Assembly: GCA_965242965.1 (NCBI GenBank)
Contig: OZ251518.1
Coordinates: 416,001-480,000, forward strand
Reading direction: 5' to 3'
Length of the DNA stretch: 64,000 bases
Source: Candidatus Poribacteria bacterium
GTDB taxonomy: Bacteria > Poribacteria > WGA-4E > WGA-3G
Shown here one piece after another: positions 655 to 53,851 of this stretch. The position numbers and the translations under genes are program-made. Numbering within the stretch: the first letter of the stretch is position 1; the number at the start of each line of letters is the position of its first letter. The notes below the pieces were generated by a model, which made no database searches, was not told the origin of the DNA, and saw only the letters and a list, made by a program, of their open reading frames with translations.

Positions 655-1045
655 GAGGGTGTTTCATAACTCCGTTTCGGTATTTATTCCATCTTGGGGG
701 CGGGCGAAAACTGAGCCCTCTTGGTAGGCGAGACCGGAAGGGTTCTCCTACCGGAAGGTGTCGGACCCACCTCTGTAGTTCGGGAGCGCGATGCGCCTGC
801 CTCAGCACAGATTGCGGAGGTTGATGTCGGGCCCACCTCTGTAGTTCGGGAGCGCCTGCTCCCGAACGGGTCAGGATCAGGCGATCCTGACCTACAGAGC
901 CTGGCGATCGCAGCATGGCGAGGGACAGGCCCTCGCCCTACGTGAAGGGACGGCGTTTTTTATCGTAGCGCGGGAGCCCTCGGATGCCACACGCGCATGG
1001 CGAGAGGGTCCCCCCCCGACGTTGAGCGATTTATGAAACACTATC
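655..1045. mobile_element. MITE-like element copy 1 (degenerate right TIR) with REP cargo
   Basis: GAGGGTGTTTCATAA at 655-669 and TTATGAAACACTATC at 1031-1045. Subterminal sequence is shared with other copies. No target duplication is visible. Confidence 0.7.
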
Positions 1046-1109
1046 AACGTAGATATCGGATTACGGAGAGAGACGTTCTTGCACGAGAAACGCGTGCGAA
1101 ATAACAAAA

Positions 1110-1913
1110 ATGCAACTTATCAACAAAGAAAACATCCTCGCGATGACAGACAAGTGGGAAGGCGAGAGATTTCCCGATGGCCGCCCGCGGGTTTCAGATG
1201 ATATTCTCCAACGGATGAAGGCGATTAGTATTGAACAGGCGTGGGGTGTCCTCCACGGCAGCGGTTATCGGTTTCAGTTTGCTGGCGATTGGTGGAATCT
1301 TCACCCGGAGCGCGTTCTCGTCGGGAGAGCGGTGACGTGCGCCTTCGTGCCTGTCCGTCCTGATTTCAACGATGCCGTTTCGGCGCAGGGAGAAAAAGAG
1401 GGACGCGTCGGTGGACAAAATTCGTGGGTAATCGATACGCTGGTTCAAGACGATGTCATCGTCGTAGATCTGTTCGGCAAAGTCAAAGATGGCACGTTTG
1501 CCGGTGATAACCTCGGCAACTCCATCTACGCCAAAACCGGCACCGGGATGGTAATTGATGGCGGCATCCGTGATTTAGACGGCATCTATGAATTGCCGGA
1601 CTTCGCAACCTTCGTTCGGGGTGTAGATCCGACTGGAATTGCGGATGTCACGTTGACAGGGATTAACACGCCGATTCGCATTGGGGAAGCGACTGTTTTG
1701 CCGGGCGATGTGGTGCTAGGCAGGCGTGGTGGTGTCATCTTTATTCCGCCGCACTTCGCGCAGCAGGTAGTTGAACGCGGCGAGGAGGTGCATCTCCGCG
1801 ACCGGTTTGGGCATCAACGTCTGCGGGAAGGCAAATATACGCCCGGCGAGATAGATAGGAAATGGACAGAAGAGATTGAGGCGGACTTCGCGCAGTGGCA
1901 GGAAAACCAATGA
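1110..1913 (+). CDS. RraA / HMG-CHA aldolase family protein
   Basis: LVGRAVT, DVIVVD, GDNLG, VIDGGIRD and IRIGEATVLPGDVVLG motifs. Confidence 0.85.
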   Translation: MQLINKENILAMTDKWEGERFPDGRPRVSDDILQRMKAISIEQAWGVLHGSGYRFQFAGDWWNLHPERVLVGRAVTCAFVPVRPDFNDAVSAQGEKEGRVGGQNSWVIDTLVQDDVIVVDLFGKVKDGTFAGDNLGNSIYAKTGTGMVIDGGIRDLDGIYELPDFATFVRGVDPTGIADVTLTGINTPIRIGEATVLPGDVVLGRRGGVIFIPPHFAQQVVERGEEVHLRDRFGHQRLREGKYTPGEIDRKWTEEIEADFAQWQENQ

Positions 1914-3625
1914 CAGACACACTCCAATCCGAAATTCACGCTATTTTACAGGGCGCGATACGAGATGCTATTGCGGCGGGAGAACTCTCTATCGCTGAGG
2001 TGCCAGAAATCCTGTTTTCGCCGACGAAAACGCCGGAACACGGCGATTTTGCTACGCCGGTTGCGTTGGGGTTGGCGAAACAGGCAAAAATGCCGCCTCG
2101 CAAGATTGCCGAGACGATTGTCGCGCGCGTTAACGTGGCGGCGCATCCGCATATCCGCGAGATTGACATCGCCGGGCCGGGGTTTATTAACATCCATCTT
2201 TCGGATGCGTGGCTTTATGAGACGCTTCGCACGATTGTCGCCGAAGGAGATACTTACGGCACCTGCAGCGAAGGTGCCGGGCAGCGCGTCCAAGTTGAGT
2301 TTGTCAGCGCGAATCCAACGGGACCGCTGAATATTGTGAGCGGGCGCGCTGCCGCTGTAGGCGATACCCTCGTCAATCTGCTCAACGCTGTCGGCTACGA
2401 TGCCATCCGTGAGTTCTACGTCAACGATGCAGGTGGACAAGTGGAACGGCTCGGTGAATCGATAGACATCCGCTACCGGCAGGCGTTGGGGGAAACAGGA
2501 CTGGAAATTCCCGAAGGCGGTTACGAGGGCGAATACCTGCGGGATTTCGCGCAGGATGTCGTCAAGGCGGCGGGTGACACGCACCTGCAGCTTGAGACAA
2601 CCGAACGGGTATCCCTCTTCCGCGACAGGGGCATTGCGCACATCCGCGCGCAACAAGAGGCATCCTTGGAACGCTTCGGCGTTCAGTTTGATGTCTGGAC
2701 AAGCGAGAAGGCAATCCGCGCAAGTGGAAAACCGGCGGAGATTCTCCAACTCTTTCGCGACAAGCAGTATCTCTATGAAGCGGAAGACGCAACGTGGTTT
2801 CGGATGTCTGACTTCGGGGACGATAAGGATTGCGTTGTCATCCGTCGCGATGGGGAATGCACCTATTTCGTGCCGGACGCGGCTTATCATCGCGATAAGT
2901 TTGACCGGGGATTCAATAAAGTCATCAACTTTTTTGGGCCGGACCATCAGGGGCACGTCAGTCGTCTCTACAACTTCGTGAAGGCACTCGGTTTGCCGGA
3001 TGACTGGCTGGAGATTGCTATTATCCAACAGGTGAATCTCGTTGATGACGAGGGACAGCGGTTGGATATGTCAAAACGGCGCGGGAAGTTCTACACGCTA
3101 GATGTGCTACTTGACGAGCTCGCGGCGGCGATTGGGGAACGGTTCGCGGTGGATGTCGCGCGCTATTTCTACCTGATGCGCGCCAATAACACGCACCTTG
3201 ATTTCAATCTGGAGTTGGCGGTTAGAGAGGCGAATGAAAATCCTGTCTTCTACATTCAGTATGCCTTTGCGCGGTGCTGGAGTATTTTCCAAAAGACTGC
3301 CGAGCATGGGATTACGCCGCTGCCTATTGACAAGGTTTCTTTGGAGTTGCTGACAGAACCGATGGCGCATGCGTTAATTCGGAAGTTGTCGGAATTTCCG
3401 GCATTGGTGCTTTTCAGTGCGGAGTCGCGCGAGGTGCATCGCATCGCGCACTATTTGCATGAGTTGGCGGGGTTATTCCATCCCTACTATAATCAGCATC
3501 GGGTGCTGGATGCCGAGCATCAGGAACGGACGCAGGCGCGGCTTGTCTTGACGCAGGCGGTGCAGACGGTGTTGAAAAACGGGCTGGCATTGTTGGGGAT
3601 TTCCGCGCTGGAAAAACGGATGTAA
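1910..3625 (+). CDS. argS: Arginine--tRNA ligase
   Basis: HGDFATP, IAGPGFIN, VEFVSANPTGPL, MSKRRG, NPVFYIQYA and C-terminal LLGISALEKRM. ATG at 1910 overlaps the upstream stop (ATGA). Confidence 0.97.
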   Translation: MTDTLQSEIHAILQGAIRDAIAAGELSIAEVPEILFSPTKTPEHGDFATPVALGLAKQAKMPPRKIAETIVARVNVAAHPHIREIDIAGPGFINIHLSDAWLYETLRTIVAEGDTYGTCSEGAGQRVQVEFVSANPTGPLNIVSGRAAAVGDTLVNLLNAVGYDAIREFYVNDAGGQVERLGESIDIRYRQALGETGLEIPEGGYEGEYLRDFAQDVVKAAGDTHLQLETTERVSLFRDRGIAHIRAQQEASLERFGVQFDVWTSEKAIRASGKPAEILQLFRDKQYLYEAEDATWFRMSDFGDDKDCVVIRRDGECTYFVPDAAYHRDKFDRGFNKVINFFGPDHQGHVSRLYNFVKALGLPDDWLEIAIIQQVNLVDDEGQRLDMSKRRGKFYTLDVLLDELAAAIGERFAVDVARYFYLMRANNTHLDFNLELAVREANENPVFYIQYAFARCWSIFQKTAEHGITPLPIDKVSLELLTEPMAHALIRKLSEFPALVLFSAESREVHRIAHYLHELAGLFHPYYNQHRVLDAEHQERTQARLVLTQAVQTVLKNGLALLGISALEKRM

Positions 3626-3627
3626 GC

Positions 3628-4290
3628 TGTGGGGGGGCATAAATGGTTCAACGTCGCGGGGGACAGGCCCCCGCGCTACGGTTAAAAAAACGCCGCCCCA
3701 TCCCGTAGGGCTTGGGCCCTCGCATGCCATACGCGCATGCGAGAGGGTTTCCCTCGCCATGCGTTTTGGTGTCAGAGCGCCTCACCCCTGTAGTTCAGGA
3801 GCGCCTGCTCCTGACCCGTTCGGGAGCGGGCGCTCCCGAACTACAGAGGGGGAAACCCTCATCGTAACGATGGAGATCGCGGGGGACAGGCCCCCGCGCT
3901 ACGGTAGGTGGGGCGTGCGCTCATCACGTCTGTAGGTCAGGAGCGCCTGCTCCTGACCCGTTCGGGAGCGGGTGCTCCCGAACTACAGAGGGGGAAACCC
4001 TCATCGTAACGATGGAGATCGCGGGGGACAGGCCCCCGCGCTACGGTAGGTGGGGCGTGCGCTCATCACGTCTGTAGGCAGGAGCACCTGCTCCTGACCC
4101 GTTCGGGAGCGGGTGCTCCCGAACTACAGAAGGGGAAACCCTCATCGTGACGATGGCGATCGCGGGGGACAGGCCCCCGCGCTACGGTAGGTGGGGCGTG
4201 CGCTCATCACGTCTGTAGTTCAGGAGCGCCTGCTCCTGACCCGTTCGGGAGCAGGCGCTCCCGAACTACAGAAGGGGAAACACTCATCAT
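3628..4290. repeat. REP cluster with a ~142-bp unit repeated ~3.5 times
   Basis: Units start at about 3788, 3930, 4072 and 4213. Each has a B-type inverted REP pair (GTAG(T/G)TCAGGAGCGCCTGCTCCTGACC...GAACTAC) followed by an A-type REP (CGCGGGGGACAGGCCCCCGCGCTAC); the last unit is truncated. Confidence 0.92.
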
Positions 4291-4303
4291 CCTGATTTTA
4301 AAC

Positions 4304-4333
4304 TTGCAATGCATTGCGAATTTAAGGTATAAT
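4304..4333 (+). promoter_or_regulatory. Sigma70-like promoter, probably giving a leaderless transcript
   Basis: TTGCAA-N18-TATAAT, with the ATG at 4340 only 6 nt after the -10 box. Confidence 0.6.
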
Positions 4334-4339
4334 CACATT

Positions 4340-7300
4340 ATGACAACACTTAACCTGAAACCAACTCACAAAGCGATAACCGCCTATTATGCCGCACTCA
4401 ACAGGTATCAACAGCACGGGGTAACCCACGAAACCGCCGTGCGCGCCGCCTTTCAAGCACTCCTCGAAGCCTGCACGCGACAACTTGACTGGACGCTGAT
4501 TTGTGAACAGACACTACGCCTCCCCGATAGAAATCCTATCCGCCTCGATGGCGCGCTGCTCGACGAACATAGTTTGCCCCGCGGCACCTGGGAGGCAAAA
4601 GGCGTTAAAGGAGCTCTCCGCGCCGAAATCAATAAGAAATTCGACGCAGGCTATCCCCAGGACAACATCCTCTTCCAAACACCGGAACGCGCCATTCTCT
4701 ATCAAAACGGACGCGAAGTGATGGACGCAGACATCACCGCACCGGAAACGCTTGTCACGGTGTTGCAGACGTTCTTTGCCTACGAGCGCGCGAACGCCGC
4801 CGAATGGCGCGCCGCCGTCGCACGCTTCAAAGAACTTGTCCCCGAACTCGGGGCGGAGGCGGCGAACCTTATCCAAACGCAGCACGAAACAAACGCGCAA
4901 TTCCGCGCCGATTTCACCGCGTTTCACGAACTCTGCAAAACCGCCATCAACCCGAATCTCTCGGCGGCGGCTGTCCAAGAGATGCTCGTCCAACATCTTC
5001 TCACCGAACGGATGTTCCGCACTGTCTTCGAGGATCCGGATTTCGCCCACCGCAATATCATCGCCCGCGAAATTGAAAAAGTCCTCAAGGGAACACTGGC
5101 GAACTTCCTCAACCGCGGCCAACTGCTCCAAAAACTCACGCCGTTCTATCGCGAAATCGAACGCGAGGCAGCTACACTCGTCGATTTCTCGCAGAAACAG
5201 CACTTCCTCAACACCGTTTACGAGCAGTTCTTCCAAGGCTTCTCCGTGAAGCAGGCGGATACGCACGGCATCGTTTACACCCCGCAGCCTATCGTCGATT
5301 TTATGGCGAACAGCGTCCAGCATATCCTCCAAACCGAATTCGACCACGCGCTGGCAGATGAAGGCGTTCACATCATCGATGCGTTCGTCGGCACCGGCAA
5401 CTTCATCGTCCGACTCATGCGCGACATCCCCAAGACGAAACTGGAGGCGAAATACCGAAACGAACTCTGGTGCAACGAAGTGCTGTTATTGCCTTATTAC
5501 ATCGCCACGCTCAACATCGAGCACGAATTCTACGCCGCCACCGGCACCTATCTGCCGTTTGAAGGCATCTCCCTCGTGGATACGTTCGAGTTAGCGGAAG
5601 ACCGGCAGTTGTCGCTCTTAACCGCTGAAAACACGGCGCGTGTGGCGAAGCAGCAAGCCTCGCCGATGTTCGTCGTCATCGGAAATCCGCCCTATAACGC
5701 CGGGCAAATCAACGAAAACGATAACAACAAAAATCGGAATTATCCGACGCTGGAGGCGCGCGTGCGAGAAACCTATGCGAAAGACTCCACCGCAACGCTC
5801 AAAAATTCGCTCTATGACACTTACGTCAAGGCACTTCGTTGGGCTTCCGATAGGATTGGCAAACAGGGGATCGTCGCGCTCGTCACGAATAACAGTTTTC
5901 TTAGCGGCACCTCGTTTGATGGCATGCGGAAACACCTCGCTGAAGACTTTGATGCCATCTATGTCGTCGATTTGGGCGGCAATGCGCGGCGTGATAAACT
6001 TGTCGCTGATGCAAGCGTTTTTGGTATCCGCGTCGGGGTGAGTATTAATTTTTTCGTGAAAAACCCTTCCCGGCGATCGCGGGGGACAGGCCCCCGCGCT
6101 ACGGTGCCTTCCGGTCTCGATGGGATCGCGGGGGACAGGCCCCCGCGCTACGGTAACGGGGAAAATTCCGCGCGCATCTTCTATTACCGCACCGATGACG
6201 CGTGGAACAAACACCAGAAATTCGATTTCTTGACGCAAACTGAACACGTTGGGAATGTGGACTGGCAAACGCTAGAACCCGATGCACGAAATACCTGGCT
6301 CACCGAAGGACTCAACCCTGAATTTTTGACGTTCATGCCGATAGGGAGCAAAACGGCAAAACGGGAAAAAAAGGAGCCCGCCGGGGTGATATTCCACCAG
6401 TTCAGCAACGGTTTGAAAACAAACCGGGATGCATGGGCTTACAACTTCAACCGCGATGCGCTCGCTGAAAACATGCAGCGCATGATAGGTGCCTATAACG
6501 CGCAGGTCTCCCAGTGGCGCGATAGGGACGACAACGCGGAGATAAGTGTTGACGATTTTGTCGATGCCGACTTGCGGAAAATCAAATGGAGTGGCGATTT
6601 GAAAACCGCTCTCAAAAAAGGGGTTTTCGCGGCGTTTTCCAATGAAAAATTGCGAACGTCTCTCTACCGTCCTTTCACCCGTTCTTTTCTGTTCTTCGAC
6701 CGGCTCATGAATAACGGCACCTTTCTTCAGCCCTATATCTTCCCTACGCCGGAGACAGAAAAGGAAAATCTCGTTCTCTCTGCCGCGGGAACTGGGCATC
6801 GGACGGGATTTGGCTGTCTCGTCTCAAACGTCATTCCCAATGTAGATCTTGCCTATGAAAAAGGGCAGTGCTTCCCGTTCTACTTTTACGATGAAGATGG
6901 CACTAACCGCCGAGAAAACATCACCGATTGGGCATTGGAAAACTTCCGCAAGCACTATGGCGACGATACCATCACGAAATGGAACATTTTCCACTACACC
7001 TACGGTATCTTGCATCATCCTGCGTATCGCGAACGTTACGCCGCTGATCTCAAGCGCGATTTACCGCATATCCCCTACGCCGACGATTTCTGGGCATTTG
7101 CAAACGCCGGCGCACGGTTAGCGGAACTTCATGTCAACTACGAGGCGCAGCCGGAGTATCCGCTCACGTTTGTCGAAGATGCGACGCGGCAGTTGGATTT
7201 CCGCGTGGAAAAAATGAGGTTGTCCAAGGACAAGACCTCGCTTATCTATAACGAGTTTCTGACGTTGGAGGGGATTCCTGCGGCGGTGTTTTCGTATCGC

Positions 7301-7492
7301 TTGGGTCAGTATTCGGCGTTGGAGTGGGTGGTGAAGCAGTATCGTGTGAAGGCGGATGCGCGGAGTGGTATTGTGAACGATCCGAACGATGCGTCGAATC
7401 CGCGTTATATCGTGGAGCTCATCGGTTCGGTGGTTACGGTGAGTTTGGAGACGTGTAAGATTGTTGGGGGTTTGCCATCGTTTCGTTCGTGA
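4340..7492 (+). CDS. Type IIG / type ISP-like restriction-modification fusion (nuclease + N6-adenine MTase + specificity domain)
   Basis: N-terminal LDG...WEAK (PD-(D/E)xK-like), GIVYTPQPIVDFM, IIDAFVGTGNF, VIGNPPY, and a C-terminal YRPF / ENITDWAL / SALEWVVKQY LlaBIII-like region. Confidence 0.88.
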   Translation: MTTLNLKPTHKAITAYYAALNRYQQHGVTHETAVRAAFQALLEACTRQLDWTLICEQTLRLPDRNPIRLDGALLDEHSLPRGTWEAKGVKGALRAEINKKFDAGYPQDNILFQTPERAILYQNGREVMDADITAPETLVTVLQTFFAYERANAAEWRAAVARFKELVPELGAEAANLIQTQHETNAQFRADFTAFHELCKTAINPNLSAAAVQEMLVQHLLTERMFRTVFEDPDFAHRNIIAREIEKVLKGTLANFLNRGQLLQKLTPFYREIEREAATLVDFSQKQHFLNTVYEQFFQGFSVKQADTHGIVYTPQPIVDFMANSVQHILQTEFDHALADEGVHIIDAFVGTGNFIVRLMRDIPKTKLEAKYRNELWCNEVLLLPYYIATLNIEHEFYAATGTYLPFEGISLVDTFELAEDRQLSLLTAENTARVAKQQASPMFVVIGNPPYNAGQINENDNNKNRNYPTLEARVRETYAKDSTATLKNSLYDTYVKALRWASDRIGKQGIVALVTNNSFLSGTSFDGMRKHLAEDFDAIYVVDLGGNARRDKLVADASVFGIRVGVSINFFVKNPSRRSRGTGPRATVPSGLDGIAGDRPPRYGNGENSARIFYYRTDDAWNKHQKFDFLTQTEHVGNVDWQTLEPDARNTWLTEGLNPEFLTFMPIGSKTAKREKKEPAGVIFHQFSNGLKTNRDAWAYNFNRDALAENMQRMIGAYNAQVSQWRDRDDNAEISVDDFVDADLRKIKWSGDLKTALKKGVFAAFSNEKLRTSLYRPFTRSFLFFDRLMNNGTFLQPYIFPTPETEKENLVLSAAGTGHRTGFGCLVSNVIPNVDLAYEKGQCFPFYFYDEDGTNRRENITDWALENFRKHYGDDTITKWNIFHYTYGILHHPAYRERYAADLKRDLPHIPYADDFWAFANAGARLAELHVNYEAQPEYPLTFVEDATRQLDFRVEKMRLSKDKTSLIYNEFLTLEGIPAAVFSYRLGQYSALEWVVKQYRVKADARSGIVNDPNDASNPRYIVELIGSVVTVSLETCKIVGGLPSFRS

Positions 7493-7509
7493 AAAAAACG
7501 CCGTCATGT

Positions 7510-7960
7510 TACGTAGGGCGGGGGCCTGTCCCCCGCCATGCTGCGGTCTACCGGAAACTCGCGAGGGACAGGCCCTCGCGCTACGGAAAAAAACGCTGCT
7601 ACGTTACGTAGGGCGGGGGCCTGTCCCCCGCCATGCTGCGATCTCTAGGCTCTGTAGTTCGGGAGCAGGCGCTCCCGAACTACAGTGGGCCCGATGCGCG
7701 CCCCCCCAACGGGGATAAAGCATCCGAGCGGGTTTCCCTCGCCATGCAACGATCGCGAGGGACAGGCCCTCGCGCTACGGTGAAAAAACGCATCCCCGCC
7801 ATCGCGCGCGCCAGTTTCTGTAGTTCAGGAGCGCCTGATCCTGACCCGTTTGTGATCAGGCGATCACAAACTACAGAGTGGGCCCGATGCGCGCCAGGTT
7901 CTGTAGGTCAGGATCGCCTGATCCTGACCTATTCGGGAGCAGGTGCTCCCGAACTACAAA
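7510..7960. repeat. Mixed A- and B-type GTAG REP cluster
   Basis: Several GTAGGGCGGGGGCCTGTCCCCCGCC / CGCGAGGGACAGGCCCTCGCGCTAC pairs and GTAGTTC...GAACTAC units. Confidence 0.9.
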
Positions 7961-7987
7961 CCGAGGAATTGACAATAGGACTACGTT

Positions 7988-10513: not shown

Positions 10514-11335
10514 ATGGCACTTTTGCACTGTGGCAATTTAACACTTGAAGGCAAATCCAGCTCCGCTGTGGCCACCTATATCCGAGTGAAAGAGCTCGAT
10601 CTGGTTTTCGATTTAGGCAGGTGTCCGATGCATTTTATCGGCACCAACAACGTCTTCATCTCGCATTTTCACTTGGACCACTATTTCGGGCTGCCCATCT
10701 ATATCAGCCAACGGTGGCTTTCTGATATACCGCCGGGGAACATCTATGTGCCTTCAAGTGGGTTTCGCCAGTTGACACACATTTTGGATATGATTTCTGC
10801 ACTGGATATGGGGCGACGCTGGGCATATAGCGTCACGCCGGTGCATGTGGGCGATGCGATTCCGTTTCGGCAGAATCTCATGGCGCACATTCTACCGGGC
10901 AACCACAGTGTTCCCGCTGTCTCTTACCTCATTTGTGAGGTTCGCAAAAAACTCAAGCCTGAGTTCCATGCATTGCAGGGGCATGAGATTGCCGCCCTCA
11001 AGCATTCCGGCACCGAGGTGACGACAGAGGTGCAGTTGCCGCTCATCGCCTATCTTGGTGACACGCGCGGGATTCCGTTGGATGCGCATCCGTTGCTTAA
11101 ACAGTGCCAGGTTCTGATTTGTGAATGCACGTTTGTCCTGCCGGAGCATCGCGCGCGTGCGAAAAAGACGATGCACCTGCATCTCGACATGCTGCTGCCG
11201 ATGTTAGCCGAACTTGAGAGTGAACATGTCGTGTTGACGCACTTCTCCCGCCGCTATACACCGGAACTTATCCGGCAGACAGTTTTCAACCGTTTGCCAG
11301 TGAAGGAACGTTCACGCGTTAAGTTATTCCTGTGA
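10514..11335 (+). CDS. Metallo-beta-lactamase fold hydrolase, RNase Z-like
   Basis: FISHFHLDH, NHSVP, YLGDT, ICECTF, HLH and LTHFSRRY. The longer 10394 start is a REP-derived extension. Confidence 0.85.
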   Translation: MALLHCGNLTLEGKSSSAVATYIRVKELDLVFDLGRCPMHFIGTNNVFISHFHLDHYFGLPIYISQRWLSDIPPGNIYVPSSGFRQLTHILDMISALDMGRRWAYSVTPVHVGDAIPFRQNLMAHILPGNHSVPAVSYLICEVRKKLKPEFHALQGHEIAALKHSGTEVTTEVQLPLIAYLGDTRGIPLDAHPLLKQCQVLICECTFVLPEHRARAKKTMHLHLDMLLPMLAELESEHVVLTHFSRRYTPELIRQTVFNRLPVKERSRVKLFL

Positions 11336-12129: not shown

Positions 12130-12199
12130 AAGCGTTCCTCTCTGTTGTTCTGAGTCAGAATTTGTGGTGGGCCCCTCCTACAGTAAGATATCGGTTCCA

Positions 12200-12480
12200 C
12201 CTCTGTAGTTCGGGAGCGCCCGATCTCGAACGGATCAGGATCTGGCGATCCTGATCTACAGAATCAGCGTGGCGATCGAACGATGGCGAGGGACAGGCCC
12301 TCGCCCTACGTGAATGGGCGGCGTTTTTTTCATCGTAGCGCGGGGGCCCTCGCATGCCATACGCGCATGCGAGCGGGTTTCCCCCGCGATCGTTGCATGG
12401 CGAGGGACAGGCCCTCGCCCTACGGTAAGCAGCACGTTTTCCCTCATCCCGCGATCGTTGCACGGCGAGGGACAGGTTTT
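12200..12480. repeat. REP cluster between convergent-stranded ends of two minus-strand genes
   Basis: One B-type pair, A-type REPs and a loop-expanded A-type REP at about 12335-12390. Confidence 0.88.
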
Positions 12481-15004: not shown

Positions 15005-15055
15005 GTGTGGATGTAGGCAATCGTGCCTCAAGCAAGAACGTAGTCAACGTAATCT

Positions 15056-15407
15056 GAGGGTGTTTCATAAGTCCGTTTCGGTATTTATTCCGCCTTGGAG
15101 GGCTGGCGAACACCAGAAGGCATCGGGTCCATCTCTGTAGTTCGGGCTCGCCTGATCCCGAATGGGGCATGGAGAGGAGAACCCCTCCCTGGCCCGTAGC
15201 GCGGGGGCCTGTCCCCCGCGATCGTTCGATCTGCGCGAAAAACGCACACTGGCCAAAGCCGTTTCCCCAATCGAGGCACGGCGAGGGACAGGCCCTCGCC
15301 CTACGGGCCAGGGCGGCGTTTTTTCACCGTAGCGCGGGGCCCTCGGATGCCACACGCGCATCCGAGCGGGTTTCACCGCGACGTTGAGCGAGTTATGAAA
15401 CACCCTC
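15056..15407. mobile_element. MITE-like element copy 2 with a perfect 10-bp target duplication
   Basis: TIRs GAGGGTGTTTCATAA / TTATGAAACACCCTC. AACGTAATCT at 15046-15055 and 15408-15417. Confidence 0.88.
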
Positions 15408-15449
15408 AACGTAATCTGGCAGTGTCAATAATGGCATCGGTGGAGAGAC

Positions 15450-22415: not shown

Positions 22416-22681
22416 GAGGGTGTTTCATAAATCACTCAACGTCGCGGGAACAGGCTCCGCGCTACGGTGAAAAAAACGCCGCCCTTCACGTAGGGCGAGG
22501 GCCTGTCCCTCGCCATGCGTTTTGGTGTCAGACCGCATCACACCTGTAGGTCAAGATCGCCTGATCTTGACCCGTTTGTGATCAGGCGATCACAAACTAC
22601 AGAGGTGGGCCAAATGCCTTCCGGTATTCGCCCGCCCGCCAAGGCAGGATAAATACCGAAACGGAATTATGAAACACCCTC
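22416..22681. mobile_element. MITE-like element copy 3 (opposite orientation to copies 1 and 2)
   Basis: Both 15-bp TIRs are intact. Flanks TTTTAACT / TTCTAACC match at 6 of 8 positions. Confidence 0.82.
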
Positions 22682-30649: not shown

Positions 30650-30753
30650 TGTGAGTTCTCCTATTTATGAACGGGTGGATGTAGAAATCCACCCTTACAA
30701 AACGATTTTTGTGATTGTTTTCGGGAGCAGGTGCTCCCGAACTACAGTTATGT

Positions 30754-31393
30754 GAGGGTGTTTCATAAATCCGCGGTAAGAGAGACCCCCCAGTCTCAAT
30801 ATCGTCCGCGCAATCCAACGATCGCGGGGGACAGGCCCCCGCGCTACGGAAAAAACGGCATTTCACCGTAGGGCGAGGGCCTGTCCCTCGCCATCGCTCG
30901 CTCGCCAGGTCTGTAGGTCAAGATCGCCTGATCCTGACCTGTTTGTGATCAGGCGATCACAAACTACAGAGGCGGAAACACACATCGGGACGATGGCCAA
31001 CGCGGGGGACAGGCCCCCGCGCTACGGAAAAAACGGCACTTCACCGTAGGGCGAGGGCCTGTCCCTCGCCATGCTGCGGTCTATCGGACATTCGCGGGGG
31101 CCTGTCCCCCGCGCTACGGTAACGTGAGGCGTTCTTGGCAGCAGCACGGCCGCCTTCATCGTAGGGCGAGGGCCTGTCCCTCGCCGTGCTGCGGGCTATC
31201 AAAAACCTCTTTTAGGTCCGTAGGACCTACATGTCTATAGAAAAACGTGCCGCACCCTATCAAGGTCCGTAGGTCCTTAATAAGGTTTATAGTGTTGTTG
31301 CATCGAGACCAGGAGGTCTCTCCTACTGAGGAAACGGCATCGTTCGGAATCTCACGAAACCATTTTGACAACAACGAATTATGAAACACCCTC
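30754..31393. mobile_element. MITE-like element copy 4 (640 bp) with a perfect 8-bp target duplication
   Basis: TIRs intact. AGTTATGT at 30746-30753 and 31394-31401. Cargo of A-, B-, C- and E-type repeats. Confidence 0.88.
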
Positions 31394-31418
31394 AGTTATG
31401 TGACATAGGTATCCCGAA

Positions 31419-33919: not shown

Positions 33920-34336
33920 CGAGACGCGGGAGGGCGCGCCGTTTCTTTTTCCGGCGCGCGATACCCCGGCGAGGGACAGGCCCTCGCCCTACGATGAGGG
34001 GCATTTTTTACCGTAGCGCGGGGGCCTGTCCCCCGCACGCGTCTCAATTACCGTAGCGCGGGGGCCTGTCCCCCGCGATCTCTACGGTAGACCGCAGCAT
34101 GGCGAGGGACAGGCCCTCGCCCTACGGTAAGGGGAGGCGTTTTTTCACCGTAGCGCGGGGGCCTGTCCCCCGCGATCTCTACGGTAGATCGCAGCATGGC
34201 GAGGGACAGGCCCTCGCCCTACGATGAGGGGCCGTTTTGTGAAGAAGATGGCCCGCCTACCGTAGCGCGGGGGCCTGTCCCCCGCGATCTCTACGCGCGC
34301 GATACCCCGGCGAGGGACAGGCCCTCGCCCTACGGT
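33920..34336. repeat. A-type REP cluster
   Basis: Alternating GTAGCGCGGGGGCCTGTCCCCCGCG and GGCGAGGGACAGGCCCTCGCCCTAC units. Confidence 0.92.
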
Positions 34337-36607: not shown

Positions 36608-37228
36608 CCGTAGGGCGGGGGCCTGTCTCTCGCCGTGTCTGTATTGCGGGGTCGGAGCAGACTCCCGATTCCCGTAGGGCGGGGGCCTGTCCCCCGCCAT
36701 GCCCGGGATAATCGAGCACTCGCGAGGGACAGGCCCTCGCGCTACGGTGAGCGGGAAAACGCTACGGGGATCGAGAGATCGCGAGGGACAGGCCCTCGCG
36801 CTACGGTTATTCGGAGCGGGCTCCTCATTAACCGTAGGGCGGGGGCCTGTCCCCCGCCGTGCCCGTGTCGCGATGAAAGTTCGCGAGGGACAGGCCCTCG
36901 CGCTACGGTGAGCGGGAAAACGCTACGGGGATCGAGAGATCGCGAGGGACAGGCCCTCGCGCTACGGTTGTCGGAGCAGGCTCCTCTTATCGTAGGGCGG
37001 GGGCCTGTCCCCCGCCGTGCCTGTGTTGCGCGGAACGTTCGCGAGGGACAGGCCCTCGCGCTACGATAAAACGGGGCGTTTTGTGTTCCACCGAGCGTTC
37101 GCGAGGGACAGGCCCTCGCGCTACGGTTGTCGGAGCGGGCTCCTCATTAACCGTAGGGCGGGGGCCTGTCCCCCGCCGTGCCCGTGGTAGGCGAGAAATC
37201 GCGAGGGACAGGCCCTCGCCCTACGGTT
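36608..37228. repeat. Large A-type REP cluster (BIME-like)
   Basis: About 12 units of GTAGGGCGGGGGCCTGTCCCCCGCC and CGCGAGGGACAGGCCCTCGCGCTAC with repeated linkers. Confidence 0.92.
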
Positions 37229-44704: not shown

Positions 44705-44739
44705 ACGCCTCGTCCGTTTTCCCTAGGAGCTGGACTGCT

Positions 44740-47042: not shown

Positions 47043-47051
47043 GGCGCGCGC

Positions 47052-47336: not shown

Positions 47337-47403
47337 CACGCCGCCGCGAAGCGGTAAAGCGCGTCTCCTGGGCTACTGGCGCGCTGCTGCATCAGGCTAA
47401 ATT

Positions 47404-47675
47404 GAGGGTGTTTCATAAATCGTCCAACGTCGCGGTGACAGGCCCTCGCGTTATTGAGCGCGCGCTCCCCGCCTGTAGGTCAGGATCGCCTGATCCTGAC
47501 CCGTTTGTGATCAGGCGATCACAAACTACAGACAGGGGGAAACATCGTGACGATGGAGATCGCGGGGGACAGGCCCCCGCGCTACGGGCACATCGAGACC
47601 GGGAGGTCTCTCCTACGGGGACATCGCTCGCATTGAGACCGGGAGGGCGCGCCAACGGATTTATGAAACACCCTC
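47404..47675. mobile_element. MITE-like element copy 5, inside the infB-rbfA operon
   Basis: TIRs intact. AGGCTAAATT at 47394-47403 versus AGCCTAAATT at 47676-47685 (9 of 10). Confidence 0.86.
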
Positions 47676-47696
47676 AGCCTAAATTAGGAAACTGAC

Positions 47697-48083: not shown

Positions 48084-48088
48084 AGGCT

Positions 48089-49138
48089 ATGCGTAATTGT
48101 GGTGAACTCCTCACACTATTTGAGCAGTATGAGACATTCGCACTGTCAACGCACATTCGTCCCGATGGGGATGCTATCGGCGCGGTGCTGGGCCTCTATT
48201 TTTTCCTCAAGAAGCTTGGGAAATCGGTGAGGATATTTAATACCGATGAAGTGCCCGAGACGTATCGGTTTCTGCCATCTTGGGATGCGATTGAGGGGTT
48301 AGATGCTGTCGGCAGGTATCGTCCGGAGGTGTTGGTGGTGCTAGACGCAAGTACTCATGAGCGCATCGGCATGAAGTTGGCAAAAAAGTTGCTGCCGTTA
48401 GAGGTGCTGGTTAACATAGACCATCACGCTACGGCGGAGGCGTTCGGGGATGTGAACGTAATTGATGCGGATGCCTCGTCAACTTCGGAGATTGTCTATC
48501 GGCTAATCAAGGCGTATGCACAGCGCGAGAGTGCTGCGCTGGAAGTCTGGCTGTGCGAAGCGAGCGCGCTCTGTCTCTATACCGGCATCATGTTTGACAC
48601 CGGCTGTTTTCGGCATAGCAATGCGACGGCTGAAACGCATCGGGTTGCGGCGGCACTGATCGAGATAGGCGAGTTTCCACCCGATGAAGTCTACCGCAAT
48701 GTTTACGAACAGGTGCCTGTCTCTAAAATTCGCCTGTTGCGCGAAATTCTTGGCACGTTGAACCTCGCCGCTCACGGGAAGATTGCCTCGGTTTACGTCA
48801 CGCAGGAAATGTTTGATAAAACTGGCACGGGCCCGGAATCGGTGGAAGGTGTCGCGAATCAACTCCAAGCGATTGCCGGAGTTGAGGTGGCAATCTGTGT
48901 TACCGAACTTGCCGATGGCAACGCGCGGGTGAGTCTCCGGAGCAAGGGGAATGTTGATGTCAGCGCGCTCGCCGCGGAATTCAAGGGCGGCGGGCACAAA
49001 CGCGCCGCAGGGTGCCGGGTGGAGATGTCTTATCTCGTAACTGTTGAAAAACTCGTTGCAAGGGCACACCGATACATCCCGCTGTCTCAGGAGTCATCCC
49101 AACATCCGGGAAATCTTGAAAATCCTGCTCGGTATTGA
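48089..49138 (+). CDS. nrnA: DHH/DHHA1 oligoribonuclease/PAP phosphatase
   Basis: HIRPDGDAIG, NIDHH, GIMFDTGCF, VSLRS and GGGHKRAAG. Confidence 0.9.
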   Translation: MRNCGELLTLFEQYETFALSTHIRPDGDAIGAVLGLYFFLKKLGKSVRIFNTDEVPETYRFLPSWDAIEGLDAVGRYRPEVLVVLDASTHERIGMKLAKKLLPLEVLVNIDHHATAEAFGDVNVIDADASSTSEIVYRLIKAYAQRESAALEVWLCEASALCLYTGIMFDTGCFRHSNATAETHRVAAALIEIGEFPPDEVYRNVYEQVPVSKIRLLREILGTLNLAAHGKIASVYVTQEMFDKTGTGPESVEGVANQLQAIAGVEVAICVTELADGNARVSLRSKGNVDVSALAAEFKGGGHKRAAGCRVEMSYLVTVEKLVARAHRYIPLSQESSQHPGNLENPARY

Positions 49139-49147
49139 GAGGAAAAC

Positions 49148-50122
49148 GTGGAAGTTTTTTATTCTATGGACGACATACCCGAATTGGACAGGGACGCGGC
49201 GGTAACCTTCGGCGTGTTTGACGGAGTCCATATTGGACATCAAGCCGTTATTGAGACGCTTCTTGCACGTGCGAAACACGATAACCTACTCAGCATTCTG
49301 GTGGGATTTTATCCGCATCCGCTGGCATTTCTTGCACCAGAACGGTGCCCGCGTATCTTAATGCCGCTGTCCAAACGCATTAAAATTCTTGAACAACTCG
49401 GCATCAACAAGACAGTCATTCTCCGTTTTGACGCACAGATTGCTTCGATGTCCCCGGCTAATTTTGTGGAGCGCGTGCTGTTAGAGAAGTGTCGCGCCAA
49501 GCAGATTATCGTCGGATACGCGTGCCAGTTTGGAAAAGGACGGGAGGGCAATGCGGCATTCTTGGAGGCACACAGCCAGAACCGGCCCTTTGAAGTCTCT
49601 GTCGTTCCGCCGACACAGATTAACGGTTCGCCTGTCCATAGCACCCGTATCCGTGATGCCATCGCGCGGGGTGATTTGGGTTGGAGTGCGCAGCTGCTCG
49701 GCCGCAGCTATTCAATTATCGGTAATGTGGTTCACGGGGATGGGCGCGGCAAGCACCTCGGCTTTCCGACAGCGAATATCGAGATGGAGAACCAAGTGTG
49801 TCCCCCGAACGGCGTTTACGCCATCCGTGCGCGGTTAATGCCCGATTGCGAAGGCGCGCTTGCTATTGATGGCGTTTTAAACATCGGCACCCGGCCGACA
49901 TTCGCGGGCGCGACGTTTCAGATAGAGGCGCATTTCTTCGATTTTGATGAGACTATCTATGGAAAATCGGTGGAGATATTTTTCGTTGATAAAATCCGAA
50001 GTGAACGGAAGTTCCCGGGGGTTGACGCGCTGGTCCAGCAAATTCAACGAGATATCGCCGCCGCAACCGAGATTCTTGCGGAGGCAGAGCCTTTAGCAGC
50101 GGCGAGACCGGGGAGGGCTTAG
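49148..50122 (+). CDS. ribF: Bifunctional riboflavin kinase/FAD synthetase
   Basis: GVFDGVHIGH, HSTRIR, VHGDGRGK.LGFPTAN, GVY, NIGTRPT and EAH. Confidence 0.95.
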   Translation: MEVFYSMDDIPELDRDAAVTFGVFDGVHIGHQAVIETLLARAKHDNLLSILVGFYPHPLAFLAPERCPRILMPLSKRIKILEQLGINKTVILRFDAQIASMSPANFVERVLLEKCRAKQIIVGYACQFGKGREGNAAFLEAHSQNRPFEVSVVPPTQINGSPVHSTRIRDAIARGDLGWSAQLLGRSYSIIGNVVHGDGRGKHLGFPTANIEMENQVCPPNGVYAIRARLMPDCEGALAIDGVLNIGTRPTFAGATFQIEAHFFDFDETIYGKSVEIFFVDKIRSERKFPGVDALVQQIQRDIAAATEILAEAEPLAAARPGRA

Positions 50123-50340
50123 TAGCATCGAGACCAGGAGGTCTCTCCTACCTCCGTAGGGCGAGGGCCTGTCCCTCGCCGAGGGCTCTCTTACCACCGT
50201 AGGGCGAGGGCCTGTCCCTCGCCATGCTTCGGTCTACCGGAAACTCGCGGGGGAAACCCTCTCGGATGCGCGTGTGGCATCCGAGGGCCCCCGCGCTACG
50301 GTACTTTGACATTTTCTTGCCAGGTCTCTCCTACGGGGAG
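50123..50340. repeat. A- and C-type REP cluster
   Basis: ATCGAGACCAGGAGGTCTCTCCTAC, two GTAGGGCGAGGGCCTGTCCCTCGCC copies and a loop-expanded REP. Confidence 0.88.
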
Positions 50341-50431
50341 ATCGGAGGTCCTCAGCAGCGGCGATAGGCAACTCCTTGCGCGCCGATATTACGGATGCTT
50401 CGCGGAAAAAATCTCACAAAATCATTTTAAT

Positions 50432-50460
50432 TTGAATTCTCTGTCAATTTGTGGTATAAT
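50432..50460 (+). promoter_or_regulatory. rpsO promoter
   Basis: TTGAAT-N17-TATAAT with an extended TG. Confidence 0.7.
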
Positions 50461-50571
50461 ATATAATCATCAGGGCCTCCACGAAACACATCGGGTAAGA
50501 TTACGGTATTTCGCAATAGGTCCTGAGCATCAACCGATACGCTCAATATAGGCAAAAGGAGGTGAAAGCGA

Positions 50572-50862
50572 TTGGCAATCGATGCAGAACGGAAGCAGGA
50601 GATTATCCAACAGCACCAGATGCATGAACGGGACACCGGCTCCCCGGAGGCGCAGGTGGCGGTTTTAACTGCGCGCATCAAACATTTGACTGAACATTTT
50701 CAGACGCACAAGAAGGACTATCATTCCCGCTACGGACTTTTCCGCTTAGTTGGTAAGCAGCGGCGGCTGCTGCGGTATCTTTATAGGAAAGATATTACGC
50801 GCTATTACCGTCTCATCAACGAACTCGGCATTCGCGATACAATCGGATCCGAGCGGAGTTAG
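50572..50862 (+). CDS. rpsO: 30S ribosomal protein S15
   Basis: [26 protein letters not shown] and LGIR. TTG start after AGGAGGTG. Confidence 0.96.
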
Positions 50863-51202
50863 AACGGTTTTATCGGCCCGGCACAGTGTTTCTGTGACAG
50901 TGTTTTTGTGTCGGACCGCGTCAAGGCAATTTCCCATCGCATGCGCGCTCAACTCGCGCGCATAACGGGAAATGCGCACACACCTCTCAACGTCCCAGAG
51001 ACGCAATAGCAGCGCATTGGACGAAAAACGTAGTACGGACGCAAGCGGTGGCTTCGGTAGGCGCGCTTCATAGACGCGCACCGACAGCAGCGCGCGGACA
51101 ACCCGCGACGCTCGGTGGGAAAAGAGTGGATAACGTAAGTCCCGAAACGGAGAGACATGACTGAATAATTTGTTAGAACAGAACAGGAGTTAAGAGCACG
51201 AC

Positions 51203-53488
51203 ATGAAAGTAGAAATGCAACTTGGGAGCGAGAAGCTATCGATTGAAACCGGAAAAGTTGCGAAACAAGCAGACGGTGCCGTTTGGGTGCAATACGGTGG
51301 GACAGTCGTCCTCGTCACAGTCGTCGCTGATGATAGAGAACATGACTTGGATTTCTTCCCCCTCACCGTGGATTACCGCGAGAGAGCCTATGCGGGCGGC
51401 AAAATCCCGACGGTCTATGGCCGCCGCGAGCCCCGTCCCGGCGCATCAGAACAACTCATCGCACGCTTGATCGATCACTGCATCCGGCCGCTATTCCCGA
51501 AGGATTTTAAAGCGGAGGTGCAGGTACTGTGCAACGTATTCTCATCGGACGGTGTCCATCCCGCGGATGTGCCAGCCCTCATCGGCACCTCCGCCGCCTT
51601 GGCCATCTCCGACATCCCGTTTAACGGCCCCGTCGCCGCTGTCACCGTCGGAAGGGTTGACGACAAATTGATAATCAACCCGACTTACGAAGAACTGCAC
51701 GAATCCGACATGGAACTCTTCGTGAGCGGCACCACGGACGCGGTAATGTCTGTCGAAGGCGGCGGACACGAAATCCCCGAAGACGAGGTGATTGACACGA
51801 TTATCACGGCGCATGAGCAGATCCAGGAGGTTATCAAACTCCAAGAGGGATTGGCAGCGGTAATCAGCAGCGAGAAGCGCGCCTACAAGGCCAAAAGCGT
51901 GGAGGCAGACCTCAGCGAACGCGTCCGAAACCTTGCAACGTCACGCATCCGTGAATCCATCGGCATGGAGAATAAGAAGGACCGGGAGGCATATCTTGAA
52001 CAGGTGCAGGAAGAGGTGCTATCCGAAATCCTTGAAGGAGCACCGGAGGAGATAGATACCGCGGCAACTAACAAGGATGCCATTGCTATCCTCAGCGACA
52101 TTGAGAAAGAGGAGATGCGCAGCGCAATCCTCACGCAAGGGACGCGCGTCGATGGGCGCGGTGTGACAGATATCCGGGGCATCTCCGGCGAAGTCGCCTT
52201 GCTGCCGCATACACACGGTTCGGCACTTTTCACCCGCGGGCAGACGCAGGCACTCTGTGTCACGACACTCGGTACCTCCGGCGATGAAGATGTGCAGCGC
52301 GGGCTTGATGGTGAATTGCGGCGCGGCTTTTTCCTCCACTACAACTTCCCTCCGTTCAGCACGGGCGAAGTGAAGCGGATGATGGGCCCTGGCCGCCGCG
52401 AGATAGGGCACGGTGCGCTAGCCGAGAAGGCATTGGAGCCAGTCATCCCTGATAAAGAGGACTTCTCTTACACCATCCGCGTCGTTTCGGAGATTTTGGA
52501 ATCGAACGCGTCGTCCTCAATGGCGACGGTTTGCGGTGCGACGCTGGCACTCATGGATGCCGGTGTGCCGATTACGCGCCCGGTCGCGGGCATCGGGGTT
52601 GGGCTCATCAAAGAGGGTGAGCAGGAAGTTATCCTCACCGATATGCTCGGCACGGAAGATTTTCTCGGCGACATGGATTTCAAAGTCGCTGGGACAAGCG
52701 ACGGTGTCACAGCGGTTCAGATGGATATCAAGATTGCGGGTGTCACACCGGAATTGATGCGCCGTGCGATTCATCAGGCGCGAGAGGCGCGCCTTGCGGT
52801 GATAGAGCAGATGAACGCCGTTATCGCTGAGCCGCGCGAGGAATTATCGCCATACGCACCGCGTATCTACACTCTCCAGATTCCGCAGCAGAAGATTAAG
52901 GACCTCATCGGGCCCCGCGGCAAGACGGTGCAAGGCATTCAGGAGGAGACGAACACTACCATCAACATTGAGGACGATGGTTCGGTGGAAATCGCGGCGA
53001 TGAGCGCGGAAGATGTCAAACTTGCTGAAGAGAAGGTGCGCGCTGTCACGGCACTACCAGAAATCGGCAAGGAATACACCGGCAAAGTGGTGCGCACTGC
53101 GCCGTTTGGTGCGTTCGTTGAAATCCTACCGGGCAAAGATGGCCTCGTCCACATTTCGCAGATGGGCGATGGGTATGTCCGGCGCGCTGAGGATGTGATG
53201 GAGGTAGGCGACGAAGTCACTGTCCGCATTCTTACCATTGACGAACAGGACCGGGTAGATCTCACCCTCATCGCTGCCCGTGGCATTCCGGTTGAAGAAC
53301 TCACCGTGGCATCAAACTCGGAGCGCGAAGGCGAGACAGATGGTCCGCGGGACAACCGTCCGAATTACCGCGACAATCGGCGGAATGACCGGCGCGGTGG
53401 TAACCGTTACGGACAGCGGGGTAATAATGGGCGAGATTCTCGCGAGCGGCGTAACGCGCCTCGTCTGCCGCGGGAACGGATTCGATAG
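51203..53488 (+). CDS. pnp: Polyribonucleotide nucleotidyltransferase (PNPase)
   Basis: ETGKVAKQADGAV, FFPLTVDYRE, HGSALFTRGQTQ, RREIGHG, GDMDFKVAG, KH and S1 domains. Confidence 0.97.
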   Translation: MKVEMQLGSEKLSIETGKVAKQADGAVWVQYGGTVVLVTVVADDREHDLDFFPLTVDYRERAYAGGKIPTVYGRREPRPGASEQLIARLIDHCIRPLFPKDFKAEVQVLCNVFSSDGVHPADVPALIGTSAALAISDIPFNGPVAAVTVGRVDDKLIINPTYEELHESDMELFVSGTTDAVMSVEGGGHEIPEDEVIDTIITAHEQIQEVIKLQEGLAAVISSEKRAYKAKSVEADLSERVRNLATSRIRESIGMENKKDREAYLEQVQEEVLSEILEGAPEEIDTAATNKDAIAILSDIEKEEMRSAILTQGTRVDGRGVTDIRGISGEVALLPHTHGSALFTRGQTQALCVTTLGTSGDEDVQRGLDGELRRGFFLHYNFPPFSTGEVKRMMGPGRREIGHGALAEKALEPVIPDKEDFSYTIRVVSEILESNASSSMATVCGATLALMDAGVPITRPVAGIGVGLIKEGEQEVILTDMLGTEDFLGDMDFKVAGTSDGVTAVQMDIKIAGVTPELMRRAIHQAREARLAVIEQMNAVIAEPREELSPYAPRIYTLQIPQQKIKDLIGPRGKTVQGIQEETNTTINIEDDGSVEIAAMSAEDVKLAEEKVRAVTALPEIGKEYTGKVVRTAPFGAFVEILPGKDGLVHISQMGDGYVRRAEDVMEVGDEVTVRILTIDEQDRVDLTLIAARGIPVEELTVASNSEREGETDGPRDNRPNYRDNRRNDRRGGNRYGQRGNNGRDSRERRNAPRLPRERIR

Positions 53489-53507
53489 ACAGATGTTTTG
53501 ACAGGAG

Positions 53508-53542
53508 AGGCGGGGGTCACTTCAGGTTATCCTCGCCTTTTT
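53508..53542 (+). terminator. Intrinsic terminator after pnp
   Basis: AGGCGGGGG...TCCTCGCCT followed by a T-run. Confidence 0.65.
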
Positions 53543-53550
53543 GCTTAATT

Positions 53551-53765
53551 GAGGGTGTTTCATATATCGCTCAACGTCGCGGGAACAGGCCCCGCGCTCT
53601 GCGTCTTGCCATCAAATCGCATCTCCCCTGTAGTTCAGGATCGCCTGATCCTGACCTGTTCGGGATCAGGCGATCCCGAACTACAGAAGTGGGCCCGATG
53701 CCTTTCGGTATTCGCCCGCTCCCCAAGGCGGAATAAATACCGAAACGGAGTTATGAAACACCCTC
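53551..53765. mobile_element. MITE-like element copy 6 (215 bp) with a perfect 8-bp target duplication
   Basis: GAGGGTGTTTCATAT / TTATGAAACACCCTC. GCTTAATT at 53543-53550 and 53766-53773. Confidence 0.88.
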
Positions 53766-53851
53766 GCTTAATTTCGTGGGACGGGTCCGATGCGCGCTTA
53801 GCACGTAACGCGGGGACCTGTCTCCTGCAAAAAAAATAGGCGGATGTCACC

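Follow-up and report, generated by a model that had tools for sequence, protein, structure and literature searches.

Repetitive extragenic palindromic (REP) sequences and transposable elements of the miniature inverted-repeat type (MITEs) are usually viewed as separate classes of small repeat, each with a transposase chemistry of its own. Terminal inverted repeats (TIRs) accompanied by target duplications indicate transposition by DDE enzymes, whereas REPs headed by GTAG are linked to HUH tyrosine transposases (REP-associated tyrosine transposases, RAYTs, or TnpA-REP), which use no TIRs. Here we describe six TIR-bounded segments filled with GTAG REPs in a 64,000-nucleotide stretch (hereafter the window) of the genome of a sponge-symbiont bacterium, Candidatus Poribacteria. 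The window is G000:C1:416001-480000, G000 being the genome from which it comes (5.70 Mb in two contigs, 54% G+C, 94.7% complete by marker genes).

GTAG REPs, the REP doublets termed REPINs, bacterial interspersed mosaic elements (BIMEs) and RAYTs have already been described (PMC2817692, PMC3116915, PMC3733652); in the available parts of these papers REPs and MITEs are handled as distinct classes. Among MITEs, the closest described relative is MITECca01 of a Cardinium endosymbiont, which derives from the IS982 insertion sequence (IS) ISCca4; it is reported to be approximately 240 bp long and, with 169 copies, the commonest mobile element there (PMC9769881). Composite MITEs with a core made of another repeat are on record too, for example in Porphyromonas gingivalis, with a MITE that bears a minisatellite (PMC4596501), and in the clam Donax trunculus, with the element DTC84 (PMC3879986), each as its available excerpt presents it. 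A 2024 review of prokaryotic MITEs (PMC10969869) mentions REP in its reference list alone. Literature searches on Poribacteria with MITEs, transposases, repeats or REPs brought up nothing on the present elements, and the titles and opening lines of abstracts of papers joining IS982, MITE and REP offered no link to them.

On the evidence set out below we think it probable that the six elements are members of one large, orphan MITE family, with ends taken from an IS982-like insertion sequence and a body made of the host's own REPs, and that the family was carried through the genome by a DDE transposase.

Six window elements and their family

A search of the window for the 15-mer GAGGGTGTTTCATAA, with up to two mismatches allowed, returned 12 matches against 0.05 expected on the basis of 100 shuffles. 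The 12 matches form exactly six convergent pairs, 655-1045, 15056-15407, 22416-22681, 30754-31393, 47404-47675 and 53551-53765, and these are the elements that the initial annotation had delimited. Ten of the ends are exact; the right end of 655-1045 has two mismatches and the left end of 53551-53765 has one. Four elements had been credited with clear target duplications, and direct reading of the flanks confirms them (8–10 bp): AACGTAATCT, 10 bp, on both sides of 15056-15407; AGTTATGT, 8 bp, around 30754-31393; AGGCTAAATT/AGCCTAAATT, 10 bp with one mismatch, around 47404-47675; and GCTTAATT, 8 bp, around 53551-53765. At 22416-22681 the duplication is degenerate (TTTTAACT/TTCTAACC, six of eight positions matching), and reading both flanks of 655-1045 revealed no clean duplication.

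Most of the elements were also said to share asymmetric subterminal ends. Our classifier places the CTCCGTTTCGG... end in four of the six and the ATCGCTCAACGTCGCGG end in five; 30754-31393 has a right end of a third (C) type, which retains, past the TIR, approximately 30 bp of the left end of the parent IS. The interiors are, as claimed, differing mosaics of REPs; written as strings of REP heads they read, in element order, ACcc, aAac, ACd, aACdaAaAb, Cdab and Cc. The first copy (655-1045, 391 bp; no strand is assigned to this or the other copies) has an A-type end on the left and a B-type end on the right, and the REP at its B end carries an insert of about 30 nt in the loop; its REP heads are also given as C, C, c and a. 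A and B ends, together with a loop insert in the B-end REP, are found also in the second copy (352 bp; 15046-15417 with its duplication). The third (22416-22681, 266 bp) has what we term the founder form, in which a B end is followed by REP a, REP A, the REPIN C/d and an A end, and is a member of a cluster of 12 full-length copies. The fourth (640 bp; 30746-31401 with its duplication) contains nine REP heads. The fifth (272 bp; 47394-47685 with its duplication) lies between infB and the next gene, and the sixth (215 bp; 53543-53773 with its duplication), downstream of pnp, is a short form with a C/c REPIN alone inside.

The six are a small sample of a large family. In G000 as a whole the TIR occurs 396 times without mismatch and 989 times with up to two; an exact-match search with the backwards pattern found none. 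Neighboring plus and minus matches make up 352 pairs, of which 290 are shorter than 1 kb, with a mode at 250–300 bp (79 pairs). We treated the 288 TIR pairs of 100–1000 bp as complete elements. The tabulation of duplication lengths extends the window result to the genome: of the 290 pairs, 62 have a longest exact flanking repeat of 8 bp, 25 one of 9 bp and four one of 10 bp, and with the right flank shifted no pair did better than two mismatches in eight. When a single mismatch is admitted, duplications of 8–10 bp border 149 of the 288 complete elements (91 exact, 58 with one mismatch), compared to none of 288 in a control with the right flank shifted by 25 bp. Duplications of 8 bp are 84% A+T in a genome that is 46% A+T, and conform to the consensus ANTTAANT, whose fixed positions are A (85%), T (82%), T (84%), A (85%), A (74%) and T (79%). 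Long and short elements bear duplications in similar measure (48 of 101 elements of at least 450 bp, 101 of 187 shorter ones). A B end was recognized in 186 of the 288 elements and A and B ends together in 66; across the whole set the subterminal sequences are diverse. TIRs combined with duplications of this kind are the expected marks of DDE insertion, by either a cut-and-paste or a copy-paste route.

Sites in related genomes point in the same direction. Positions 1-33912 of the window are syntenic with the genome G002 (75–91% DNA identity over aligned blocks), and at all four syntenic sites the MITE is missing from G002, where the spacers measure 4–72 bp compared to 321–743 bp in G000; the G002 spacers are too diverged for a single target copy to be read. 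One clean filled/empty pair comes from a second relative, G001: the filled site reads GG-AGATGAGACT-(198-bp MITE)-AGATAAGACT-ACCTCAAAC and its empty counterpart in G000 reads GG-AGATAAGACT-ACCTCAAAC. The initial annotation had reasoned that empty sites still containing both duplicated flanks would speak against transposition; the one clean empty site has a single target copy, an outcome that favors transposition.

The parent insertion sequence and its loss

The initial annotation had suggested that an autonomous IS with the same ends be sought. An exact-TIR scan of 40 related genomes located it in G022, a genome of the same family but another genus, which contains seven pairs of exact TIRs spaced 1,107 bp; G024 has one such pair. 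The G022 IS has 17-bp TIRs and one open reading frame (ORF), which encodes 332 aa when read from ATG and 353 aa when read from TTG. The seven transposase reading frames are 100% identical and IS copies in the same orientation are alike when aligned. Duplications around these copies are AT-rich, like those around the MITEs, and measure 8–9 bp: AGATAATT, AATTAATT, AATTATCT and AGATAACT, and, at 9 bp, AACTAATTT and AATTAAAGT. Against Pfam, the protein matches PF13612 (DDE_Tnp_1_3) with 39.3 bits (cut-off 27) and PF01609 with 26.9 bits (cut-off 23). A length near 1 kb, a lone ORF, TIRs and short duplications agree with what is usual for the IS982 family. The best NCBIfam model for the protein is transpos_IS982, at 55.2 bits against a cut-off of 130; since PF13612 was passed while the NCBIfam cut-off was missed, we name the transposase IS982-like only. 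Relatives at E ≤1e-20 are present in 10 of the 40 genomes, including eleven in G023 and six in G032 (43–45% identity), and a large protein database holds 1,329 homologues; the top three listed among those named by NCBI or JGI are all 'hypothetical protein', two of them from Candidatus Poribacteria. Together the TIRs, the 8–10-bp duplications and an IS with the same ends and a PF13612 transposase support the assignment of the elements to DDE-type MITEs.

The IS itself survives in G000 as little more than a relic. Profile searches of G000 with PF13612 and PF01609 gave no match in either case, and the G022 protein found two fragments only, at C1:2371347-2371663 (45–46% identity, one with a TGA stop). 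Here a left TIR is followed by IS-like subterminal sequence (GAGGGTGTTTCATAAATGGTTGTAAAATGTCAGG...) and the start of the ORF, after which the frame collapses; to judge by this layout, the locus is a decayed fossil of the parent IS. The 13 TIR pairs of 900–2,600 bp in G000, inspected by eye, yielded no autonomous copy: they enclose ordinary genes or lack a long ORF altogether. Four larger pairs have exact duplications, and these too are free of transposase genes. The C-type MITE end and the left end of the IS still have GTTGTCAAAA in common, at an identical offset. In this assembly the MITEs are thus orphans, their parent being present only as a fossil.

The distribution of TIR-like matches is lopsided. 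Compared to 989 in G000, there are 15 in G001 (one in the backwards-pattern control), an assembly that is 86% complete in 210 contigs and in which repeats are probably under-assembled; five in G002 (control three), which is assembled in four contigs; and 26 in G022 (control 11), of which 14 are the ends of the seven IS copies. G022 therefore has a living IS and no visible swarm of MITEs, while G000 has the swarm and a dead IS.

Two longer TIR-bounded segments of G000, both outside the window, carry genes. The first (G000:C1:54311-57212, 2,902 bp) has exact TIRs, an exact 8-bp duplication (ATTTAAGT) and REP-rich, MITE-like arms around a gene for a 588-aa protein with ankyrin repeats and a dockerin; it looks like a mobile insertion cassette with a eukaryote-like gene. 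The second (G000:C1:188873-192792, 3,920 bp), also with exact TIRs, an 8-bp duplication (AATAAATT) and REP-rich arms, encodes a 1,023-aa protein with a Type ISP coupler, an N6 methylase and specificity domains, in which Pfam detects no nuclease or motor domain. The putative mobility of either segment rests on its one exact 8-bp duplication.

REP cargo and competing explanations

REPs are extremely abundant in G000. There are 8,611 sites at which GTAG is followed by a hairpin, 7,959 of them in families of at least 10, and counting by frequent 13-mer heads gives approximately 9,650 REP copies (9,646) in 5.7 Mb, distributed over families A (5,056), B (2,243), C (1,263), D (332) and E (295). With a crude ORF mask, the density of GTAG hairpins is 0.08 per kb in coding sequence and 5.5 per kb in other, non-coding DNA. 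A reversed-genome control, which gave 2,604 matches, was discarded as a null because reversed hairpins remain hairpins and B-family REPs end in GATG. Doublets have fixed spacings: 54 bp for C/c (301 of 342) and for C/d (227 of 241), while a/A pairs stand head to head, 24–27 bp apart.

A genuine RAYT, which the initial annotation had proposed looking for, is also present. PF01797 identifies one intact gene in G000 and one with two TGA stops. The intact gene, at C1:3147499-3148032, matches the NCBIfam model REP_Tyr_transpos (NF047646) with 120 bits (cut-off 80). C-family REPs lie on both sides of it, seven on one and ten on the other, 17 in all; members of the same family occur inside MITEs. Such an arrangement is classical for REPs and RAYTs. 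The PF01797 search of G000 found no RAYT beside A- or B-family REPs, and at least five REP families thus stand against one intact RAYT. The second RAYT-like frame (G000:C1:3125391-3125627), which contains two TGA codons in frame, is not surrounded by an array of frequent REPs.

Almost every MITE contains REPs: at least one GTAG REP hairpin was found in 285 of the 288 complete elements. The body is not IS DNA, except for the approximately 30 bp at C-type ends, and consists of GTAG-headed REP hairpins and REPIN doublets. All-against-all comparison of the elements (at least 90% identity, at least 95% coverage) gave full-length clusters of 12, 6, 4, 3 and 2 copies. The 266-bp consensus of the largest cluster runs from a TIR and B end through REP a, a 24-nt spacer, REP A, a further spacer and REPIN C/c to an A end and TIR. 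By head strings, the founder order of REPs is found in 56 elements, 30 of which have duplications. Longer cargos are shared as well: two copies, of 531 bp and 600 bp, have a collinear 463 bp in common, and another pair shares 491 bp, in each case at separate loci. Because both simple and complex cargos recur at separate loci, each with its own duplication, we attribute their movement to the DDE system. Of the two possibilities raised in the initial annotation – that REPs are spread inside a non-autonomous DDE element, or that the MITEs are hotspots for REP insertion – the recurrence of cargo supports the first.

Interiors have nonetheless changed. What sets the 296-bp and 301-bp clusters apart from the founder is a hairpin of approximately 30 nt, lodged in the loop of either REP A or REP a. 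This small hairpin (29–30 nt; CTCGGATGCC ACACGC GCATCCGAG plus a few bases) lies in the loops of A-family REPs and recurs in aligned elements at two positions of the consensus, 30 times at 88 and 20 times at 37. These two insert positions are all that we retain from the alignment to the 266-bp consensus; the accompanying figure of 198 of 288 elements aligning at 75% or more was inflated by lax gap costs and is not used. The loop hairpin is a third layer of nesting. In the window it is seen at 966-1019, 15329-15382 and 12337-12389, and heads of the form GTAG...GGGCCCT number at least 434 genome-wide. Longer elements with A and B ends contain extra a/A doublets or a second core.

The history that we propose is as follows. 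An early MITE would have captured, or have been invaded by, REPs, and a transposase acting in trans would then have copied this cargo around the genome. Between and after rounds of transposition, interiors would have been altered by the gain, loss and duplication of REP doublets, by recombination between REPs and by insertion of the 29–30-nt mini-hairpin into REP loops; it is to such REP-level changes that the many mosaics are probably due. The REPs themselves would belong to a tyrosine (HUH/Y1) system, and one intact RAYT is embedded in a C-family array. The parent transposase has since been lost from G000.

The alternative that fares best, although we regard it as unlikely, is that the MITEs are indeed hotspots: simple MITEs would have landed first, the RAYT system would then have preferentially inserted REPs and REPINs into them, and the mosaics would be mainly a product of events after landing. 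Density cuts both ways here. REP heads in MITEs (approximately 13 per kb) are about twice as frequent as in all other non-coding DNA (6.5 per kb), so that the denser interiors on which the initial annotation had staked its reading are real; however, the value inside is flat across length classes (12.5–14.9 per kb) and below the 21.6 heads per kb of the 1,185 arrays of at least three heads that lie outside MITEs. Clustering is no special property of MITEs either, given that 91% of outside heads have a neighbor within 100 bp, and in the window 92 of the 118 REP heads are outside the six elements. With clustering outside equally strong and arrays outside denser, MITE interiors look like ordinary REP arrays inside TIRs with no special attraction, and preferential insertion is not supported. 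Secondary events are real, as the loop hairpins show; AB-type elements longer than the founder do have extra A-family doublets, and MITEs at the same site in G000 and G001 do differ in cargo. Against this stand the founder and the long complex cargos that recur at separate loci with their own duplications, and the fact that only three of the 288 elements are without REPs, which means that there is no population of REP-free 'simple MITEs'.

Rather less likely still is that such elements were born repeatedly, the ends of an IS or MITE separately bracketing a pre-existing local REP array or gene and the entire segment then moving in the manner of a composite transposon, so that the ends alone are common to the family. 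The two gene-bearing segments, with their REP-rich arms and exact 8-bp duplications, could be read in this way, as could the many different subterminal sequences and one 388-bp element with an internal TIR fragment. REP arrays with the same blocks but no TIRs also exist. In the window, an ordinary array at 3679-4269 (no strand assigned) has 12 heads (string aACcaCcacaCc) and contains the same aACc block, which places these blocks outside MITEs too; further TIR-less arrays like it lie at 7513-7957, 33992-34333 and 36610-37224. Yet the B end is shared by 186 of the 288 elements and the A and B ends together by 66, the founder order of REPs is common to 56, and the variants depart from the founder by changes that are nested, loop inserts and truncation of the A end among them. 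Since the changes are nested, descent with modification from a single founder fits better than independent capture.

That the elements are not mobile DNA at all is extremely improbable. On this view the 15-mer would be a motif next to REP arrays that binds a protein or marks a boundary, and the duplications a mere sequence preference. Of the 989 TIR matches 285 are unpaired and about half of the elements lack a duplication, yet in G022 seven identical copies of a transposase gene lie between these very ends, exact flanking repeats of 8–10 bp occur at 91 of the 288 elements and at none of the 288 in the control, one filled/empty site pair is clean, and an Rfam scan of the window gave zero family matches.

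Several observations weigh against a single REP-bodied family spread by a DDE transposase, and they need to be set beside the evidence above. Complete MITEs account for 116.9 kb, or 2% of the genome, and for 16% of REP heads (1,555 of 9,646), leaving 84% outside; so far as the A and B families are concerned, the MITE is no more than a minor vehicle. The density figures depend on the coding mask, which is crude, as are the head-based families. The count of 225 different head strings among the 288 elements is inflated, because one mutated 13-mer head alters the string. Beyond approximately 17 bp, neither the A end nor the B end resembles the G022 IS. With an assembly that has no cognate transposase, mobility in G000 can be taken only as historical. 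The copies of the founder cluster are 90–96% identical, and with even the best copies no more alike than this there is no sign of recent activity. Furthermore, of 113 copies of a 164-nt core, 49 lie outside paired MITEs. Within 400 bp of 33 of these there is TIR-like sequence (up to four mismatches) on one or both sides; the other 16, which are without it, include the window copy at 12198-12345 (minus strand; order c C a A, 84% identical to the core), which has neither TIRs nor MITE ends and is a MITE in decay or else a block of REPs that stands free. The outside cores as a group are likewise either decayed MITEs or copies of a free unit once captured by a MITE. With 49 of 113 copies outside and 16 of them TIR-less, the core could be a free REP unit that was merely captured and whose spread was partly independent of MITEs.

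Two sites filled in both G000 and G001 add to these points, for the MITEs at them differ in ends, orientation and cargo, which could mean repeated insertion at favored sites or replacement of the interior. At one, the G000 copy is without its left TIR. At the other (G000:C1:3012190-3012760 and G001 C102:11260-12200), the left TIR of the G000 MITE has lost its outer 10 nt, and neighboring host sequence flanks the element as an imperfect direct repeat of 19 bp; an aborted excision or template switching may have left this scar. In G001 (positions 10790-10960 of a locus on C48) a lone D-family REP lies between direct duplications of host sequence of approximately 30 bp (GTCCTGCATCCACAATAATCCGCAAGTGAA), far beyond any target duplication length of the transposase type.

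The descent of many REP arrays from MITE landings is an idea that we advance tentatively, and with some doubt. The MITE would act as a long-range shuttle: the DDE transposase lands a block of REPs at an AT-rich intergenic site, the TIRs decay and the REPs multiply locally. We raise it because 33 of the 49 outside cores are near TIR-like sequence and because a MITE-type flank is present on at least one side of 314 of 551 C/D REPIN doublets (161 of the doublets are in complete MITEs). If true, MITE landings would be the origin of a sizeable share of the approximately 1,200 REP arrays, among them arrays whose families yielded no RAYT in the search, and REP dispersal would be a two-step process driven by two unrelated transposases.

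Among the genes near these repeats, an ORF of 1,062 aa (window 4304-7492) adjoins the 12-head REP array and has a weak match, 33 bits and far under the cut-off, to an Alw26I/Eco31I-type adenine methyltransferase model.

Relation to known systems

In G000 two repeat classes are physically merged at scale, with several hundred TIR-bounded elements made of REP arrays in a genome of approximately 9,650 REP heads. A DDE transposase is evidently able to spread HUH-type elements as passengers, and a MITE family able to outlive its IS. There are practical consequences. Annotators who expect MITE families to be homogeneous would miss or split such elements, and short-read assemblies of these sponge symbionts break at them: contigs from four of twelve public runs, all twelve of them short-read, end at REPs and MITEs, and the contig joints listed (15 of 910) are repeat-to-repeat jumps; three elements compared with these contigs gave no presence/absence call. 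Metagenome contigs around pnp gave a best locus with 65% protein identity, which is below strain level. Given that elements adjoin core genes (infB, pnp), their hairpin arrays could affect transcript ends.

Mobile insertion cassettes, such as MIC231 of Bacillus cereus, are TIR-bounded units without a transposase that have target duplications and carry passenger genes. The 2.9-kb and 3.9-kb segments of G000 have this form.

As far as the available parts of the published descriptions allow comparison, the window elements resemble MITECca01 in having the inverted repeats of an IS982 or IS982-like element, in lineage-specific spread and high copy number (PMC9769881). They differ in that MITECca01 has its parent IS intact in the same genome and an IS-derived body, whereas here the parent is a fossil and the body is made of REP hairpins; the copies here number several hundred with many variants of cargo, and the transposase falls under the NCBIfam cut-off for IS982. 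The excerpts on P. gingivalis and Donax likewise describe a TIR frame around a variable number of units of another repeat type, with copies that vary in length; in those cases, however, the units are tandem repeats without a transposase of their own, while the REPs here are linked to an HUH system. With REP, REPIN and BIME–RAYT systems, as presented in the portions of those papers at hand, G000 shares GTAG hairpins by the thousand, nearly all in non-coding DNA, doublets of fixed spacing and a RAYT within its own REP array. It departs from them in having one intact RAYT for at least five REP families and, above all, in that REP doublets form the body of TIR-bounded elements with DDE-type duplications. 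IS982-derived MITEs and REP–RAYT systems are each known, and we rate their combination in this genome as a variant of these systems rather than a new kind of element.

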